Below are positions 6,145 to 31,043 of a stretch of DNA of 32,000 bases, in pieces (position 1 is the stretch's first letter; the number at the start of each line of letters is the position of its first letter). Source of the stretch: Cupriavidus necator (GTDB lineage Bacteria > Pseudomonadota > Gammaproteobacteria > Burkholderiales > Burkholderiaceae); the NCBI RefSeq assembly GCF_016127575.1, contig NZ_CP066020.1:270001-302000 (forward strand). Reading direction: 5' to 3'. The notes beneath the pieces are model-generated. The model was not told the DNA's origin. It searched no databases and saw only the letters and a program-made list of their open reading frames with translations. A program made the translations under genes and the position numbers.

Positions 6145-6158
6145 CCGCTCCGGGTTGA
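6145..6158. promoter_or_regulatory. FNR/DNR-type box TTGAT-GCAT-GTCAA
   Basis: 9/10 match to TTGAT-N4-ATCAA, in a palindromic form. It sits in the divergent intergenic region, 98 nt from the usp ATG (6256) and 77 nt from the MgtC-like start (6068). Confidence 0.55.
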
Positions 6159-6255
6159 TGCATGTCAAGCGCGTATTACTGCCCGGGGGGTACGCTGAAT
6201 ACAACGAAACGCAAAAAAGATCGCATACTCATCACTACCCGTGAGAAGACACATC

Positions 6256-9639: not shown

Positions 9640-10160
9640 CTAAATTGCGGGGCTTGCGGCATCAATCATCAACGATTGCCTGCAGATCCCGGGAAGCGGG
9701 CCGTCGTTCCTGAACGCTGGCTTAGGATGCGGGATCCTGTCCAGCCGCACCTTGCCCGGCCCCTCGTCGACACTGACCACGCGCTCACCGGCGCGATCCT
9801 TCACCGTCACCGGGGTGATCTCCGCCGCAAATGCGCCGGATTCCATGGCCTGCTTCGCGCCCGTCACCGAGGTCATGGCAAATGGGTCCTGCGCCTCGCG
9901 GCTGAACTGGCACTTCGCCGCACAGTCCTCGCCGAAGGTGCCCATCGCTCGCCCAGGCCGGTATCGTTGCGCCCCCTGAGACCATACGCTCATATCGAGC
10001 ACATCGAGTTCTCGGCATGAGGACTCATCGGCAAAACTCCAACACGCAATCTTCGCTCACGACGTCGGAACTGCCGCCGCGTAGCAGCAACGCCAAAGAC
10101 TGGCCTTGTCCTTGGTCGCGGTAGAGGGTTGCACTACGGGCGAAGCCACCCATGAACCGG
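9640..10160 (-). pseudogene. Acetyl-CoA acetyltransferase (thiolase) internal fragment, degenerate
   Basis: MGTFGEDCAAKCQFSREAQDPFAMTSVTGAKQAMESGAFAAEITPVTVKDRAGERVVSVDEGP...KPAFRNDG parallels the thiolase core MG.TAEN.A....ISRE.QD.FA..S...A......F..EI.PV........DE.P....L..LKPAF..DG. Both N- and C-terminal parts are absent. The upstream portion is barely recognisable. Confidence 0.55.
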
Positions 10161-10163
10161 CAC

Positions 10164-10195
10164 CGCGCCTTCTTGCATTATCTCAAGAAGGCGCG
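10164..10195. promoter_or_regulatory. Perfect 12-bp inverted repeat (CGCGCCTTCTTG-N8-CAAGAAGGCGCG) enclosing a TTG-N8-CAA core
   Basis: The arms are 10164-10175 and 10184-10195, with loop CATTATCT. The inner 14-mer TTGCATTATCTCAA (10173-10186) has the FNR-family TTG/CAA core. It is centred 89 nt upstream of the hemerythrin ATG and sits at the edge of the thiolase remnant. Confidence 0.3.
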
Positions 10196-11448: not shown

Positions 11449-11462
11449 TTGTTCTTGATCAA
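11449..11462. promoter_or_regulatory. FNR-type box candidate TTGTT-CTTG-ATCAA
   Basis: 9/10 match to TTGAT-N4-ATCAA. It is centred about 42 nt upstream of the start of the NsrR-type operator. Confidence 0.4.
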
Positions 11463-11610: not shown

Positions 11611-12057
11611 ATGCGCCTTACCACCATGACCGACTATGCGCTACGGCTGCTGATCTACGTGGCGCGGCATCCTGAACGGATGTGTACCAACGACGAGATC
11701 GCGCAGGCCTACGGCATCTCCAGGGCGCATCTGGTCAAGGTAACGCACAAGCTGAGCCGACAGGGCTGGATCGCGACCGTGCGCGGCAGAGGCGGTGGCA
11801 TGCAGTTGTCGTCTGGGCCAGGAAGCATCAATCTCGGCGACGTGGTTCGCAGCGTGGAGCCCGATTTCGATCTGGTCGCTGGCCTGGCCGACGGCAGCGC
11901 CCGCAAGTTCGCGAGCGACGAGCATCTTTGCCGCGTCATGGATGGCGCTCGCTGGAGTTTCCTGCAATATCTTGAAAGCTTTACCCTCGCCGACCTGCTG
12001 GGGCGGGCGTTCACGGAGCCGCCGCCTGCCGACGTAGTGCACCTTGGCAGAAGCTAA
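11611..12057 (+). CDS. nsrR: Rrf2-family transcriptional regulator, NsrR-like but lacking two of the three canonical cluster cysteines (148 aa)
   Basis: MRLTTMTDYALRLLIYVARHPE...ISRAHLVKVTHKLSRQGWIATVRGRGGGMQL is a clear Rrf2 wHTH. The start is placed at ATG 11611, where homology begins. The ORF track begins 17 codons earlier. Confidence 0.85.
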   Translation: MRLTTMTDYALRLLIYVARHPERMCTNDEIAQAYGISRAHLVKVTHKLSRQGWIATVRGRGGGMQLSSGPGSINLGDVVRSVEPDFDLVAGLADGSARKFASDEHLCRVMDGARWSFLQYLESFTLADLLGRAFTEPPPADVVHLGRS

Positions 12058-13258
12058 AAACGTTGCCCTTGGCGGCAATGTGGCCGCGTACCGGCGGCGG
12101 CGCCTGGTGAACGCTCAGGACTGCCTGGGATGCTGCACCGCGCTGACTCGCCATGCCCGGGCTTGCGGCAGCCACGACGGCGATGAAGGCCAGGATGGCA
12201 GCAACGTTGCCGCTCGCAGCCATGGCCTTGACGGCCGGCAGCTGGTGACCGAAGCTCAGCCGTGCAGCCAGGGAGAGGTGCAGCACGGCAAGCGGCACAT
12301 AGAAGCTGTTGCCGAACTTCAGCTTGATGCGCGTGATCGCTGGCAGGATGACAGGCGCATGCGCCATCACCATGCTGACGATAAAGCCCAGTCCCAGCGC
12401 ATGGAGCGCCGCGTCGCGCCATGGCAGCCCTGCCGCGGTGCCCGCCCACGCCGCGCCTGCCACCAGCAGCCAGCCATAGCCCAGCAGCAAGCAGACTGCT
12501 ATGTAGCGGCTCAAGCCGTGGCTGCGCACCGTCCGGCGCGCAATATCGAAGCGTGCCAGCCAACTGGTAAGGAACGCCAGTGAGACGCCATAGACGACGC
12601 CACCGATCCTGCCCGCGTTCCCTTCCAGCGCCGACCCGGCGGCGCCCAGCACAAGCCCCGCAAGGATCGCGAGCAAGGCCGCTTGCGCGCTCGGTCGGCG
12701 GCGCATCAGGCGCGTCATTTCAAGCCGCTCGGCGGCCACCGTGACAACCAGGAAAATGAAGTACCAGGCATTGACCGAGGTCACCCAGCGGCCCGACGCC
12801 AGCGCCACGTTGCCGGCCAGCCAGGCCACGGAGGCGGCCAGCAGCAAGGCCGTGTGGGTAGCCGGCTGGCGCCGCAGCACTGCCACGCTGACGCCCACGA
12901 ACACCAACGCGCCTGCCGCCATGGCCCACGCGCCCGCGGCAGAAGATCCTGCCACCATGAGTATGGCGCCCAGCCCGGATGCCGCCGGTGCGGCGAAGGC
13001 GGCGAGACGGCCGAGCGCCACCGCGCGCTCGATGCCGATGATCGTGCCGAGGAAGCCGCCGGTCATCAATGCCCCATGGAATGAATGCGCGTGCCACTGC
13101 AGATGATGGTCGTCCACCCCGGGCAATACCACGCCTGCACGCAACAGACCGCCGAGCATGCCCGCGAGCAATGCGAACACAGCCAGCAACAACACTGCCA
13201 GCCGCGGCCAGGTCTTGCGCTGGCGCCCTTGTATGCTACAAGCGACCACGCTCACCAT
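12011..13258 (-). CDS. Polytopic (about 10-12 TM) His-containing membrane protein, possibly NnrS-like
   Basis: Long hydrophobic ORF. WHAHSFHGALMTGGFLGT and HALGLGFIVSMVMAH loosely resemble the NnrS WHAHEM.FGF and HAL..G motifs. The start is placed at ATG 13258, overlapping the upstream gene stop (ATGGTGA). The NnrS assignment is tentative. Confidence 0.7.
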   Translation of the reverse strand: MVSVVACSIQGRQRKTWPRLAVLLLAVFALLAGMLGGLLRAGVVLPGVDDHHLQWHAHSFHGALMTGGFLGTIIGIERAVALGRLAAFAAPAASGLGAILMVAGSSAAGAWAMAAGALVFVGVSVAVLRRQPATHTALLLAASVAWLAGNVALASGRWVTSVNAWYFIFLVVTVAAERLEMTRLMRRRPSAQAALLAILAGLVLGAAGSALEGNAGRIGGVVYGVSLAFLTSWLARFDIARRTVRSHGLSRYIAVCLLLGYGWLLVAGAAWAGTAAGLPWRDAALHALGLGFIVSMVMAHAPVILPAITRIKLKFGNSFYVPLAVLHLSLAARLSFGHQLPAVKAMAASGNVAAILAFIAVVAAASPGMASQRGAASQAVLSVHQAPPPVRGHIAAKGNVFSFCQGALRRQAAAP

Positions 13259-13605
13259 CCCATGGCGTGCTTCGCGCTGGCGCTCATGCGCTCCGGCGTC
13301 CATGCGGGCTCCCAGCATAACTCCACTTCAATCCCGTACCCCAGCGGCATCACGCCCTCAAGCTCAAGATGCACGTCATCCAGGACCATGTCGGCCAGCG
13401 GACATGCAGTGGACGTCATGGTCATCGAAACATAGACGCCTGCCTCGAATACGGTTACGGCGTAGATCAGGCCAACGTCGAAGACGTTCAGCGCCAGTTC
13501 CGGATCCACGACGCGGCGCAGGGCATCCGTGATAGGTGCCAGCCATTGCTCGGGGCCCTGGTAGTCAAATCCGCTCGTCCCGTTCGATGCTTGCCTGGAG
13601 AGCAT
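13252..13605 (-). CDS. DUF59 / FeS-assembly-P (SufT/MIP18-like) protein (117 aa)
   Basis: ITDALRRVVDPELALNVFDVGLIYAV...MTMTSTACPLADMV is the hallmark of the DUF59 metal-sulfur cluster assembly family. A purine-rich AAAGGGG lies just before the ATG. Confidence 0.85.
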   Translation of the reverse strand: MLSRQASNGTSGFDYQGPEQWLAPITDALRRVVDPELALNVFDVGLIYAVTVFEAGVYVSMTMTSTACPLADMVLDDVHLELEGVMPLGYGIEVELCWEPAWTPERMSASAKHAMGW

Positions 13606-13714: not shown

Positions 13715-14434
13715 TCACGCCTTGCGCAGCGTGAAACTGCTGAAGCGCGCCGCCAGCCTGCTGATATCGTCGCGGCCAAGCGAAGCGCTCGCGCCGCTGC
13801 CGCGGCACTCCTGCAACGCCCAGTGCTTCACGCCAAGGGCGGCGATGCTCTCGGCCAGCGCATGCAGCTCGGCGATATCGAACATGCCGGCGTGCCAGGT
13901 GGTGCGGCACTCGCCTGCCACGTCGCTGGCAACCCAGTGGCGCAGCGATTCCCAGGCCCTCTCCCCGCTGCCCGGCACCCGCGTAATGGCGTCATAGCGA
14001 TGTAGGGGCGCCTTGAGGTCGAGGCCGATCCAGTCCAGTTGGGGCAGGATGGCGGGCAGGCGATCGGGGTACATGCCGGCGGTGTGCAGCGCGACCTCGA
14101 AGCCTCTGGCTTGTACGTCGGCGATGGCGCCGGCCAGGGCCCCCTGCAGGGTTGGCTCGCCTCCGGAAAACACCACGCCGTCGAGCAGGCCCTGCCGCGC
14201 TTGCAGGAAGGCCAGCACGTCCGCCCAGGCGATGCTGGAAGGCGCGCGGGCATCCAGCAGGCCCGGGTTGTGGCAATAGCCGCACCGCCAAGGGCAGCCC
14301 TGGCAGAACACGACGGCAGCCAGGCGGCCGGGGAAGTCGATGGTGGTCAGCGCCGTCATGCCGCCGACGCGCAACGATGCCGCGTCGCGCCGGCGCCCGG
14401 CCGCGGCCTCACATGCATCAGGTGGCGATGGCAT
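13715..14434 (-). CDS. nrdG: Anaerobic ribonucleoside-triphosphate reductase activating protein (radical SAM)
   Basis: LRVGGMTALTTIDFPGRLAAVVFCQGCPWRCGYCHNP contains the CxxxCxxC radical-SAM motif, followed by VVFSGGEPTL. The start is placed at ATG 14434, preceded by GGAG-N4. An upstream ATG at 14485 has no SD. Confidence 0.9.
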   Translation of the reverse strand: MPSPPDACEAAAGRRRDAASLRVGGMTALTTIDFPGRLAAVVFCQGCPWRCGYCHNPGLLDARAPSSIAWADVLAFLQARQGLLDGVVFSGGEPTLQGALAGAIADVQARGFEVALHTAGMYPDRLPAILPQLDWIGLDLKAPLHRYDAITRVPGSGERAWESLRHWVASDVAGECRTTWHAGMFDIAELHALAESIAALGVKHWALQECRGSGASASLGRDDISRLAARFSSFTLRKA

Positions 14435-14618
14435 GGGGCTCCGAGAAGAAGCGGCGCTCGCGGTGCTCGCCCTGCTTGCCGACATTGAAGCTGGAGACCG
14501 GCCGATGGTAGCCCATCACACGGGTCCAGACCTCGCAGGGTTGGCGCTCCTCGTCGCGCAGCGCTGCATGGCCAGGCAAGGATTGCGTGAATTGCGCGGA
14601 TTGGTCATGGTGAATCAT
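14418..14618 (-). CDS. Stand-alone 66-aa protein carrying the class III RNR glycyl-radical signature
   Basis: AAGGAG-N7-ATG at 14618. The translation is MIHHDQSAQFTQSLPGHAALRDEERQPCEVWTRVMGYHRPVSSFNVGKQGEHRERRFFSEPHAIAT. The RVxGY...N.GK..E segment matches the NrdD C-terminal glycyl-radical loop. The stop codon overlaps the nrdG start by 17 nt. Confidence 0.7.
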   Translation of the reverse strand: MIHHDQSAQFTQSLPGHAALRDEERQPCEVWTRVMGYHRPVSSFNVGKQGEHRERRFFSEPHAIAT

Positions 14619-14760
14619 GGATGCACTCCTTCTTGAGATGGGTCGAAAAAACAGGAAAGGACGATGTTTCGGCAAAGACTGGACGGCCAAACACAGAGAC
14701 AAGGAAGCGCCGGAGGCGCTACTGCATAGAGAAATCCCGCGCATTCCATAATGCATCGCA

Positions 14761-16791
14761 CTAGGCAGCGAGCTGGTCTCGCTTGCGGGCGAGGATCTCT
14801 TCGTCGCAGCGCGGGCAGAACGGATGCTCGCCGGCGAGGTAGCCATGTGTGGGGCAGATCGAAAACGTCGGCGTCACTGTGATGTACGGCAGGCGGAAGC
14901 GCGTCAGCGCGCGCCGCACCAGTTCGCGGCAGGCCTCGCCGCTTGATAGGCACTCGCCCATATATAGATGCAGCACCGTGCCGCCGGTATACCTGGCCTG
15001 CAAATCCTCTTGCCGCGCCAGTGCCTCGAAGGGGTCCTCGGTCCAGCCGACCGGCAGTTGCGAGGAGTTTGTGTAGTAGGGCTGCTCAGCCGTACCGGCC
15101 TGGCGGATATCCGGCCAGCGCTTGCGATCTTCGCGGGCAAATCGGTACGTAGCCCCTTCGGCTGGGGTAGCCTCGAGGTTGTAGAGGTGGCCGGTTTCCT
15201 GCTGGAAGGCCACGATGCGTTCGCGCACGTGTTCGAGCAGGCGCAGCGCGAAGGCATGGCCCCACTCCGATGTGATGTCGTGCCGATCCGCGGTGAAATT
15301 GCGAATCATCTCGTTGACGCCATTCACGCCCAGCGTCGAAAAATGATTGCGTAAGGTGCCGAGGTAGCGCTTCGTATAGGGGAACAGGCCCTGGTCCATC
15401 AGGTGCTGGATCAGCTTGCGCTTGTTCTCCAGGCTCTGCTTGCCCAGTTCGAGCAGGCGATCGAGAGCGCGCAGTAGCGCCGCCTCGTCGCCGGCATGCA
15501 GGTAGCCCAGGCGTGCGCAATTGACGGTGACCACGCCAACGCTGCCGGTCTGCTCGGCACTGCCGAACAGGCCGTTGCCGCGCTTGAGCAGTTCGCGCAG
15601 GTCGAGTTGGAGCCGGCAGCACATGGAGCGCACCATATTCGGCTCCAGCTCGGAGTTGATGAAGTTCTGGAAGTACGGCAGCCCATATCTGGCCGTCATC
15701 TCGAACAGCCGCTTGGCATTCTCCGATTCCCACGGAAAATCGCGCGTGATGTTGTAGGTCGGGATGGGGAAGGTGAACACCCTGCCCTTGGCATCGCCCG
15801 CCGTCATTACCTCGATGTAGGCGCGATTGATCAGGTCCATCTCCTTCTGCAACTCGCCATAGGCGAACGGCATTTCCTGCCCGCCGATGACCGGCACCTG
15901 TTCGCGCAGGTCCTCAGGACAGGTCCAGTCGAAAGTCAGGTTGGTAAAGGGCGTCTGCGTACCCCACCGCGATGGCACGTTCAGGTTGTAGATCAGTTCC
16001 TGGATGCACTGCCGCACCTGTGCATAGGACATGGCGTCCTTGCGCACGAATGGCGCCATATAAGTGTCGAACGACGAGAACGCCTGCGCACCGGCCCATT
16101 CGTTCTGGAGTGTGCCGAGAAAATTGACGATCTGCCCCACGGCGGAGGACATGCGCTTCGGCGGCCCGGCTTCCACCTTGCCGGGCACGCCATTGAACCC
16201 CTCGTGCAGCAGCGTGCGGAGCGACCAGCCGGCACAGTAGCCGCTGAGCATATCGAGATCGTGGATATGGATATCGCCGTTGCGATGGGCCTCGCCGATT
16301 TCCGGTGTGTAGACATGGGACAGCCAGTAGTTGGCGGTGACCTTGCCCGCCACGTTCAGGATCAGTCCGCCCAGCGAATAGCCCTGGTTGGCATTGGCAT
16401 TCACGCGCCAGTCCGCCTTGCTCAGGTATTCGTTGATCGAGGCTTCCACGTCGACCAGGGCCTTGCGGTCCTGGCGCAGCCTGGCGTGCTGGCCGCGATA
16501 GGCGATAAACGCGCGCGCGGTGTTCCAGTAATTGGCGGCAATCAAGACCTGCTCGACCACGTCCTGGATCTGCTCGACGCCTGGTGTCTGGTTATGGTAA
16601 CGGTGCGCTAGGACCCTCGCCACCTGTCCGGCGAGGCTGACTGCCTGCGCATCGCCGAACTCGCCGGCCGCAGCGCCGGCGCGGCGTAAAGCCGACTGGA
16701 TCCGCTCAATGGCGAATGCCATGCTCTCGCCAGTGCGCTTGATCACCTCCCTAGGTAGGCTGGCAACAGCGGCTTCGGTACAGTGCTCCAT
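14761..16791 (-). CDS. nrdD: Anaerobic (class III) ribonucleoside-triphosphate reductase catalytic subunit; it ends after the Zn-ribbon and has no glycyl-radical motif (676 aa)
   Basis: ATP-cone-like N-terminus (VIKRTGESMAFAIERI), MCCRL thiyl-radical finger, LEATPAEG, and C-terminal CPTHGYLAGEHPFCPRC. The start is at ATG 16791, with GGGAGA upstream. The ORF track begins at TTG 16806. Confidence 0.93.
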   Translation of the reverse strand: MEHCTEAAVASLPREVIKRTGESMAFAIERIQSALRRAGAAAGEFGDAQAVSLAGQVARVLAHRYHNQTPGVEQIQDVVEQVLIAANYWNTARAFIAYRGQHARLRQDRKALVDVEASINEYLSKADWRVNANANQGYSLGGLILNVAGKVTANYWLSHVYTPEIGEAHRNGDIHIHDLDMLSGYCAGWSLRTLLHEGFNGVPGKVEAGPPKRMSSAVGQIVNFLGTLQNEWAGAQAFSSFDTYMAPFVRKDAMSYAQVRQCIQELIYNLNVPSRWGTQTPFTNLTFDWTCPEDLREQVPVIGGQEMPFAYGELQKEMDLINRAYIEVMTAGDAKGRVFTFPIPTYNITRDFPWESENAKRLFEMTARYGLPYFQNFINSELEPNMVRSMCCRLQLDLRELLKRGNGLFGSAEQTGSVGVVTVNCARLGYLHAGDEAALLRALDRLLELGKQSLENKRKLIQHLMDQGLFPYTKRYLGTLRNHFSTLGVNGVNEMIRNFTADRHDITSEWGHAFALRLLEHVRERIVAFQQETGHLYNLEATPAEGATYRFAREDRKRWPDIRQAGTAEQPYYTNSSQLPVGWTEDPFEALARQEDLQARYTGGTVLHLYMGECLSSGEACRELVRRALTRFRLPYITVTPTFSICPTHGYLAGEHPFCPRCDEEILARKRDQLAA

Positions 16792-16811
16792 ACATTCTCC
16801 CGGCAAAATTC

Positions 16812-16827: not shown

Positions 16828-16842
16828 AATCGTACGACCAAA

Positions 16843-16858
16843 ACACTATATGTAGTTT
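16843..16858. promoter_or_regulatory. NrdR box ACACTATATGTAGTTT
   Basis: 14/16 match to the NrdR consensus ACACTATATATAGTGT. It lies 52-67 nt upstream of the nrdD ATG. Confidence 0.5.
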
Positions 16859-31029: not shown

Positions 31030-31043
31030 TTGACTCGAATCAA
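31030..31043. promoter_or_regulatory. FNR/DNR-type box TTGAC-TCGA-ATCAA in the divergent nosZ / cytochrome c intergenic region
   Basis: 9/10 match to TTGAT-N4-ATCAA. It is centred 101 nt from the nosZ ATG and 110 nt from the cytochrome c ATG. Confidence 0.6.

Follow-up and report, generated by a model that had tools for sequence, protein, structure and literature searches.

To our knowledge, in every glycyl radical enzyme (GRE) examined to date, the radical glycine is part of the catalytic chain. The closest described relatives of the system treated here are the class III ribonucleotide reductases (RNRs) with a contiguous NrdD protein, such as those of E. coli, T4, T. maritima (4coi, 4u3e) and P. 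copri (8p23), each accompanied by the activase NrdG. The DNA analysed is a stretch of 32,000 nucleotides (nt) from Cupriavidus necator (assembly GCF_016127575.1, contig NZ_CP066020.1, positions 270,001 to 302,000), called the window below. Within it, the nrdD gene is divided into two open reading frames (ORFs), a large one for a catalytic subunit without the glycyl-radical loop and a small one that bears this loop, and nrdG stands next to them. The split is a real genomic architecture that is widespread among bacteria and extends to phages, and the locus most probably codes for a class III RNR with two obligate subunits.

Over its whole length, the window matches the megaplasmid pHG1 of C. necator H16 with 100% identity (NC_005241.1, ~238857-270856). 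By all features tested, the H16 locus encodes a class III RNR, with the one departure that its radical glycine lies off the catalytic chain. It belongs to the same family as the contiguous NrdD proteins and shares with them the ATP-cone, the CC finger loop and the Zn-ribbon, as well as the R-V-x-G-Y-x-R-P-V-x-x-x-N-x-G-K motif, an activase of the NrdG2 type and the predicted fold. In contrast to the contiguous proteins, the H16 chain is interrupted after the Zn-ribbon and before the glycine loop, two elements that are 4-48 residues apart in the nearest contiguous relatives. The glycyl-radical domain of the P. copri enzyme consists of the Zn site, the glycine loop and the tail, so in H16 this domain is itself divided between two polypeptides. 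A radical glycine on the catalytic chain is not found in the large ORF alone and is obtained only when the two ORFs are taken jointly.

Several other systems resemble this arrangement in part. GrcA/YfiD is likewise a small stand-alone protein with a variable or disordered N-terminus and a GRE glycyl-radical loop, and both it and the H16 small protein are presumed to be activated by the activase of the GRE itself and to insert into a large protein (PMC13450708). The initial annotation had proposed this analogy, and it holds for a small autonomous radical-bearing protein but not for a spare part, since the H16 large subunit itself lacks a glycine loop that could be replaced. Moreover, the H16 small protein is homologous to the C-terminus of NrdD and not to pyruvate formate-lyase (PFL), it is encoded inside the nrdD-nrdG operon, and in a Pfam scan of the ORFs that kept matches up to E 1 it matched only NRDD (PF13597) and not Gly_radical (PF01228).

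The split class II enzyme NrdJa+NrdJb, known from Pseudomonas aeruginosa and the Thermus phage phiYS40, also arose by fission near the C-terminus, which gave a large subunit with the barrel and a small C-terminal one, and forms a conserved subclass with adjacent genes (PMC5704485, PMC3653736). NrdJb, however, is a Cys-rich/Zn-finger domain of 150-220 amino acids (aa) that shuttles reductant and does not store a radical, and its class works with the cofactor adenosylcobalamin. RNR genes in pieces are also known from phages, in which interrupted nrdD is frequent; these include nrdA-a/nrdA-b of Aeh1, split by mobE, and nrdD genes with introns or inteins, and they are likewise interrupted yet functional (PMC3653736). 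Such splits go back to mobile elements (introns, inteins, homing endonucleases), occur sporadically and lie at other positions, whereas the H16 locus shows no mobile element (no Rfam match) and its break point is fixed and conserved across many genera. The beta and gamma subunits of BSS and the gamma subunit of HPAD are not known to have a radical glycine or homology to a GRE C-terminus. They too are accessory polypeptides, of under 10-20 kDa, on a GRE catalytic subunit (PMC12590467).

In the open-access literature, no description of a split NrdD arrangement was found. RNR surveys list H16 simply as 'NrdD, NrdG' (PMC3019208), and a GRE review of June 2026 names the formate lyases as the only GRE class with small spare-part proteins, their existence in other classes being yet to be determined (PMC13450708). 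The small ORF is already annotated in RefSeq, and the arrangement itself is apparently undescribed and unstudied.

The locus sits in a denitrification island, adjoining nosZRDFYL, norB, norR and ytfE. Its elements are as follows, where pLDDT is the predicted local distance difference test of AlphaFold2 (AF2):

14761 to 16791, minus strand: nrdD-large, class III RNR catalytic subunit without the glycyl-radical loop (676 aa, 76.2 kDa, RefSeq WP_011154155.1)
16483 to 16749, minus strand: ATP-cone, residues 15-103 of nrdD-large (PF03477, E 1.5e-17; AF2 pLDDT 90-96)
15610 to 15624, minus strand: finger loop MCCRL, residues 390-394, with the presumed thiyl-radical cysteine(s), invariant in alignments
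14806 to 14856, minus strand: Zn-ribbon CPTH-x9-CPRC, residues 646-662, on the large subunit; C646, C659 and C662 invariant in comparison with contiguous NrdDs
14764 to 14805, minus strand: C-terminal tail of the large subunit, DEEILARKRDQLAA, 14 residues, helical D-E-E-x-L-A-x-K-R, with the same pattern in 78 bacterial loci
14619 to 14760, minus strand: intergenic spacer of 142 nt, GC 0.47 as against 0.64-0.75 in the flanks
14626 to 14631, minus strand: Shine-Dalgarno (SD) sequence AAGGAG, 7 nt ahead of the small-ORF ATG (14616-14618), read from the sequence
14418 to 14618, minus strand: nrdD-small, which carries the glycyl-radical loop (66 aa, 7,685 Da; stop TGA 14418-14420; RefSeq WP_011154154.1)
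14535 to 14561, minus strand: motif LRDEERQPC, residues 20-28 of the small protein, a signature of split and long-linker forms and presumed docking element
14508 to 14522, minus strand: glycyl-radical motif RVMGY, with the Gly36 codon GGC at 14511-14513
13715 to 14434, minus strand: nrdG, activase of 239 aa with an alternative ATG at 14485 (RefSeq WP_011154153.1; Radical_SAM, Fer4_12)

The initial annotation had read most of these elements correctly. All coordinates of the large ORF with its ATP-cone, MCCRL loop and Zn-ribbon hold, as does its end at a TAG (14761-14763) 14 codons past CPRC without any RVxGY motif; the spacer with its lower GC, the SD sequence and the small ORF in a different frame (+1 relative to nrdD) were equally well placed. 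The nrdG start (ATG 14434, with GGAG-N4 ahead of it) overlaps the small-ORF stop by 17 nt, in agreement with the RefSeq start. The computed mass of the large protein is 76,191 Da from the ATG, and an alternative TTG at 16806 would give 681 aa. NrdD is reportedly described as a 76.2-kDa protein in the abstract of Siedow et al. 1999, the same as the computed value. RefSeq names the small protein 'nrdD' as well, and its original GenBank name was 'oxidoreductase'.

The two ORFs divide the known family models between them. In the Pfam NRDD model (562 positions), the large ORF covers positions 2-532 (E 1e-172, 576 bits, cut-off 26.2), and the small ORF covers 531-562 (E 7e-8, 31.9 bits against the same cut-off). 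Similarly, the NCBIfam model NF006126 (684 positions) is covered by the large ORF at 3-659 (1131 bits, cut-off 548) and by the small ORF at 649-682. The large ORF also scores 455 bits with TIGR02487 (cut-off 326), and NrdG scores 179.8 bits with TIGR02495, the NrdG2 model (cut-off 131). When the pair was aligned with a more distant set of eight contiguous NrdDs (46-51% identity), an insertion of 36-38 residues appeared exactly at the junction and nothing was missing. The ORFs are thus complementary, as the initial annotation had supposed, and the break lies in the linker. Residues C391, C392, R393 and L394 of the finger loop are invariant in the contiguous-NrdD alignment and in 24 split pairs, and RVMGY aligns with RIVGY of T. 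maritima NrdD (4coi) and with the motif of all contiguous homologues. Since the large subunit lacks a glycine loop, the small protein would be an obligate subunit.

An ORF that is truncated just ahead of an essential motif raises by default the suspicion of a sequencing error or a decaying pseudogene, in which case H16 nrdD would be a broken, non-functional form of a contiguous gene, and contiguous relatives do exist at 68-75% identity. The comparative evidence leaves this explanation scarcely any credibility. Two independent H16 assemblies are identical in this region. A pattern scan of a one-genome-per-species collection gave at least 600 matches, of which the best 80 were fetched and 78 could be assessed; in all 78 bacterial loci, from many genera, a separate small ORF follows the stop of the large one, so the orthologous loci with the best matches are split rather than contiguous. 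The closest 120 homologues of the large subunit all measure 617-693 aa, which is too short to include the glycine loop. In addition, genetic evidence shows that anaerobic growth on nitrate requires the nrdDG genes of pHG1, a requirement that B12/NrdJ can bypass (PMC2864759, citing Siedow 1999).

The small ORF is moreover under purifying selection. Nucleotide diversity in its core is 0.153, 0.132 and 0.431 at codon positions 1, 2 and 3, respectively, and the excess at the third position indicates selection on the encoded small protein. Among 26 aligned small proteins, 28 residues of a 39-residue core are invariant, including R33, V34, M35, G36 and Y37, and both ends are variable. A protein search with the 66-aa product returned 6190 matches, and the best 120 clusters consisted throughout of stand-alone proteins, 53-108 aa in length; among their sources are Burkholderiales, Pseudoxanthomonas, Acidithiobacillus and Hydrogenophilales. 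The initial annotation had suggested a look at Cupriavidus, Ralstonia and other Burkholderiales; the split is not limited to Cupriavidus/Ralstonia and is widespread, phages included.

The bacterial loci are uniform in layout and variable in detail. The large ORF ends 11-45 residues past the CxxH...CxxC ribbon, a pattern that is present in all 78 loci and is predicted from sequence to bind Zn, and the small ORF has 43-101 codons' worth of protein, most often 59-68 aa. The distance from the large stop to the small start ranges from -32 to +298 nt, with a median of ~25 nt. In most loci, nrdG begins within ~100 nt downstream. The claim that the glycyl-radical loop is a separate gene between nrdD and nrdG is strongly supported by the 78 of 78 loci, by purifying selection, by the mixed relative frames and, as described below, by a small gene that can move and by contiguous homologues that locate the break.

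A second alternative is programmed recoding, in which a +1 frameshift or stop read-through would join the two ORFs so that the active enzyme is a single-chain NrdD. In H16 itself the frames would allow it, as the small-ORF frame contains no stop codon in the spacer or upstream of it as far as at least 14846. The initial annotation had argued that a frameshift would destroy the Zn-ribbon; this argument fails, because a +1 shift within the tail codons at 14764-14805 keeps the ribbon. Furthermore, 23 of the 78 loci have both ORFs in the same frame, parted only by one or more stop codons, and fused proteins with a long linker exist, such as P0450. The wider set of loci nevertheless makes recoding very improbable. 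The relative frames 0, +1 and +2 are found in 23, 25 and 30 loci, and in 43 of the 78 the stretch from the Zn-ribbon to the core holds a stop codon in the frame of the small ORF; with mixed frames and intervening stops, no single recoding mechanism could be conserved. Eleven loci have a 4-nt overlap of the ATGA type, typical of separate but coupled genes, and nearly all loci offer a start codon preceded by an SD-like motif, although this is a weak test in GC-rich DNA. No slippery heptamer was seen by eye in 14764-14805. Judged from these sequences, recoding as a general mechanism is excluded by comparison with other loci rather than by the H16 frames; in H16 it might still occur as a minor event.

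Gene order outside the bacterial set bears on the same point. Truncated NrdDs also occur among representatives at ~50-60% identity (P0248, P0314, P0377, P0274), and two of these belong to additional split clades (P0248/L084 and P0314/L083). In L084 (3001-7023), a metagenomic and phage-like contig with DnaB, MazG and Rad50, NrdD-large is followed by DUF7487, NrdG and only then a 61-aa protein with ECQIWSRVMGYYRP. In L083, the gene of a cone-less NrdD of 605 aa has 22 nt downstream of it the gene of a 64-aa protein that contains TYTRVSGYYRN. The viral contigs L087/L167 and L089/L169 have the order large-nrdG-small, and in L116/117 the small gene precedes the NrdD-core ORF, which begins 2.6 kb downstream. 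The small gene thus lies downstream of the activase in L084, L087 and L089 and upstream of it in bacteria, so the position between nrdD and nrdG foreseen by the initial annotation applies to the bacterial loci but not to some phage-like contigs. Pieces that are parted by nrdG, or by nrdG plus another gene, must be separate polypeptides, and this too speaks against recoding.

The small gene is also found alone. IMG/VR was scanned with the small-protein alignment, giving 404 confirmed matches, and the best 80 were examined with ±10 kb on each side, where the NrdD barrel was sought by hidden Markov model (HMM) search and NrdG by phmmer. Of these 80, 78 are stand-alone ORFs of 49-118 codons and none forms the end of a long NrdD. 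An NrdD core was nearby in only 12 loci, and in the other 68 neither an NrdD core nor NrdG was found within ±10 kb, which is again difficult to reconcile with recoding. Several of the orphan contigs were covered completely, namely L180 (15.9 kb), L198 (17.0 kb) and L206 (15.4 kb). The orphans are located as follows:

L167-L240 (also L088-L166, L106, L124, L131, L143, L149, L164), small ORF at ~10001-10180 of each 20-kb locus: orphan viral loci

From their sequences, these phages appear to carry only the radical-bearing piece. The orphan small genes parallel Y06I of T4, which is GrcA-like, and they might act as spare parts.

In L178 (7743-9997; also L175, L180, L214 and L224), two radical S-adenosylmethionine (SAM)/SPASM proteins of 336 and 432 aa are encoded immediately before the small gene. 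They resemble PapB/SCIFF maturases and are unlike NrdG. Such neighbours were considered as dedicated activases of the phage orphans and rejected, as an ORF with CxxxCxxC lies within 2.5 kb in only 6 of the 68 orphan loci and the SPASM-type proteins are peptide-maturase-like rather than NrdG.

The orphans bring in a third alternative, namely that the small protein is mainly exchangeable or regulatory, either as a diffusible radical cartridge or as a decoy that titrates NrdG, with the large subunit regulated by its availability. The 68 of 80 viral loci with the small gene only suggest that it can work with a partner encoded elsewhere, YfiD/GrcA is activated by the PFL activating enzyme while free (PMC13450708), and the glycyl-radical domain of contiguous NrdD is dynamic (PMC11226230). 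On the other hand, the bacterial small gene is nearly always inside the nrdD-nrdG operon and often coupled, which indicates fixed co-expression as expected for a subunit. Nor can the small protein be a regulator only, given that no other glycine is available on the large subunit, and a purely regulatory role is unlikely. As a whole, we consider this alternative improbable, and it overlaps the two-subunit explanation without excluding it.

A bolder form of the idea would make the small protein a free-standing, exchangeable cartridge that NrdG charges off the enzyme, that plugs into the NrdD barrel, and that is discarded and replaced after oxygen damage; phages with only the cartridge gene, of 50-100 residues, would re-arm the anaerobic RNR of the host during infection. 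We offer it tentatively and hold it to be rather doubtful. If true, it would be the first glycyl-radical 'spare-part' system outside the formate lyases, and the small gene would be an unrecognised phage auxiliary metabolic gene.

The origin of the break can be traced in the contiguous relatives. A profile search yielded 113 contiguous NrdDs that are 68-75% identical to the H16 large and small proteins taken together, with coverage of 96-99%, and all 113 have the glycine motif on the same chain. The linker, measured from the CxxC of the ribbon to (C)E[VI]W[TS]RVxGY, has 4 residues in 51 proteins, 7-13 in 44 and 16-48 in 18; in T. maritima NrdD (4coi), the glycine motif likewise begins 4 residues past the ribbon. 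The long-linker forms open with a D-x-E-I/L-L-A-x-K helix, the same as at the end of the H16 large subunit, where the D-E-E-x-L-A-x-K-R element recurs, and close with L-x-D-x-E-R-Q-x-C, as is found before the glycine strand in the small subunit. For example, P0450 reads CPRC-DAEILARKERDS...IRLTDTERQAC-EVWTRVMGY. The motif LxDxER(Q/T)xC was counted in the following groups:

Bacterial small proteins: 78/78
Database small proteins: 120/120
Viral small proteins: 72/79
Long-linker contiguous forms: 11/18
Short-linker contiguous forms: 0/95

Because the junction lies inside a linker of variable length in contiguous homologues, the split can be understood as gene fission within an expanded linker. 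A short linker of 4-13 residues would have expanded in one lineage to 16-48, made up of the DEExLAxKR helix, a variable stretch and LxDxER(Q/T)xC, and a stop codon, a ribosome-binding site and a start codon would then have arisen inside the variable stretch. Read from the sequences, linker expansion followed by fission is the simplest history. The reverse order, with the long-linker forms as re-fusions, is possible; where the two ORFs share a frame, a single stop-to-sense change would fuse them.

The wider NrdD family shows further variation in architecture. Among the representatives at 50% identity (P0241-P0390; L086 426-4040), many have 800-1900 aa and 2-5 matched stretches, which suggests that inteins have inserted frequently. 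In P0377, an intein (Intein_splicing/PT-HINT matches) occurs together with a C-terminus that lacks the glycine loop. P0256 (798 aa) and P0295 (790 aa) are contiguous NrdDs with a thioredoxin/glutaredoxin-like domain of ~100 residues (CPNC) after the glycine loop, and this domain would be a fused reductant. P0390 (666 aa) and P0355 (829 aa) are NrdD-like proteins without the CC finger loop, the Zn-ribbon or the glycine motif, and may be degenerate or repurposed paralogues.

Structure prediction was carried out with AF2 on a fusion of the large and small proteins. From the single sequence, no usable model resulted (pLDDT 35). With an alignment of 110 rows of database proteins, including contiguous homologues, the model reached a pLDDT of 82.2 and a predicted template modelling score (pTM) of 0.76. 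The core of the small subunit (fusion residues 691-740) has a pLDDT of 75-88, its variable N-terminus 61, and the tail of the large subunit is predicted as a helix (fusion residues 660-680, pLDDT 89-95). A beta-hairpin (705-710/713-716) is modelled with the glycine at its tip, followed by a helix. In Foldseek, the model matched T. maritima NrdD with template modelling (TM) scores of 0.72-0.76 and T4 NrdD with 0.68-0.74, so the prediction indicates compatibility with the solved class III RNR fold. Cryo-electron microscopy and hydrogen-deuterium exchange of P. copri NrdD showed that the glycyl-radical domain is highly mobile though covalently attached (PMC11226230), which makes a non-covalent version plausible. 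The idea that the invariant Cys28 of the small protein serves as a fourth Zn ligand in trans found no support, as the large subunit already offers Cys-His-Cys-Cys, like T. maritima NrdD.

Several points weigh against an obligate two-subunit enzyme. The production of the 66-aa protein, its binding to NrdD and its radical are deduced from the genes, and the proximity of Gly36 and Cys391 in the assembled enzyme is presumed. The AF2 model is driven by the contiguous homologues and is therefore not an independent test of docking, and its finger loop is weakly predicted, with a pLDDT below 50 for residues 392-398 and 405-415. In H16, a +1 frameshift that fell within the 14 tail codons of nrdD would yield a fused protein with a 47-residue linker, and the frames permit it. 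Fused long-linker relatives (P0450, P0403) exist, so that covalent and split states interconvert, and the split may be neutral under selection and no adaptation.

The two-subunit reading suggests the following mechanism. The large subunit, the small subunit and NrdG would be co-expressed from one operon under anoxia, with the small ORF translated from its own strong SD sequence and nrdG coupled to it through the 17-nt overlap. The 76-kDa large subunit would provide the ATP-cone, a ten-stranded barrel, the cysteine finger loop and the Zn-ribbon, and the 7.7-kDa small subunit would provide the radical-storing glycine, a beta-hairpin and a C-terminal tail. As the initial annotation had also proposed, NrdG would act on the small protein and the latter would dock into the barrel. 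NrdG would abstract the C-alpha hydrogen of Gly36 while the small protein is free or already bound, and the hairpin would insert into the barrel beside Cys391/392. The affinity that replaces the covalent link would come from LxDxERQxC and the C-terminal tail, perhaps together with the DEExLAxKR helix of the large subunit.

Such a division could bring an advantage under exposure to oxygen, which cleaves glycyl-radical proteins at the glycine (PMC3019208; PMC13450708). After cleavage at the radical glycine, only the 66-residue protein would need to be replaced, which would suit facultative denitrifiers. The genomes with the split belong largely to facultative denitrifiers or sulfur oxidisers (Cupriavidus, Acidovorax, Hydrogenophaga, Thiobacillus, Castellaniella, Azoarcus), whereas strict anaerobes, for instance Desulfovibrio-type organisms and Riflebacteria, are found among the named contiguous relatives. 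Anecdotally, this contrast in lifestyle fits an advantage under oxygen exposure.

In the spacer between the two ORFs, the initial annotation had noted a hairpin followed by a U-rich run. The hairpin AGCGCC-TCC-GGCGCT is indeed present at 14706-14720, but it is not a convincing terminator, since the terminator scan of the H16 spacer was negative and its fold equalled that of shuffled controls (z = 0.06). A search of the spacer against Rfam (E up to 1) gave no match. The spacers of two Cupriavidus relatives measure 123 and 82 nt. All three Cupriavidus spacers have a GC-rich hairpin and then a T-rich run (14706-14720; L244 1420-1444; L241 ~1420-1470), are poorly conserved apart from these, and only that of L244 is positive in the terminator scan. 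The hairpin might set the ratio at which the large and small subunits are expressed, as a partial terminator or as a processing site. A conserved RNA element or the remnant of a mobile element was considered and rejected, given the negative Rfam, fold and terminator results (the last for H16 and L241) and a spacer length that varies from -32 to +298 nt.

Other features of the surroundings concern the expression and the neighbours of the operon. A palindrome-like sequence, AAACTACATATAGTGTTT, lies at 16841-16858 on the minus strand, ~50-65 nt upstream of the nrdD ATG; we take it to resemble the NrdR-box consensus, which suggests NrdR control of the nrdD operon. Directly upstream of nrdD, no FNR-type box (TTGAT-N4-ATCAA, up to one mismatch) was found. 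Four FNR/Dnr-like boxes of this form, with one mismatch each, occur at 270-283, 6155-6168, 11449-11462 and 31030-31043, against a chance expectation of 0.23, and precede other genes in the denitrification island, e.g. near a universal stress protein, an Rrf2 regulator and nosZ. After nrdG come a 117-aa FeS_assembly_P protein (DUF59-type; 13252-13605, minus strand) and a hydrophobic protein of ~430 aa (12011-13303, minus strand). This pair is syntenic in two other Cupriavidus (L241 2502-3204; L244 2512-3216), and its members may belong to the operon and serve the Fe-S cluster of the activase.

In evolutionary terms, the split amounts to the fission of a gene at a flexible linker, a familiar kind of event. 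It would surprise specialists of glycyl radical enzymes. In GRE activation, a buried loop must swing out into the activase, a step that is hard to observe. A separate loop protein of 7.7 kDa offers a ready-made system for trapping the complex of NrdG with its substrate, and it would also permit selective isotope labelling of the radical-bearing piece and the measurement of radical transfer in trans. The locus likewise bears on the question left open by the 2026 review, namely whether stand-alone radical proteins exist outside pyruvate formate-lyase. For genome annotation, the consequence is that RNR surveys which filter NrdD on the C-terminal glycine motif will misclassify the whole split clade, and in annotation pipelines the 60-residue protein and the 676-residue one appear under a single name. 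Finally, the orphan copies in phages hint at an unrecognised viral route to the supply of deoxyribonucleoside triphosphates in anoxic hosts.

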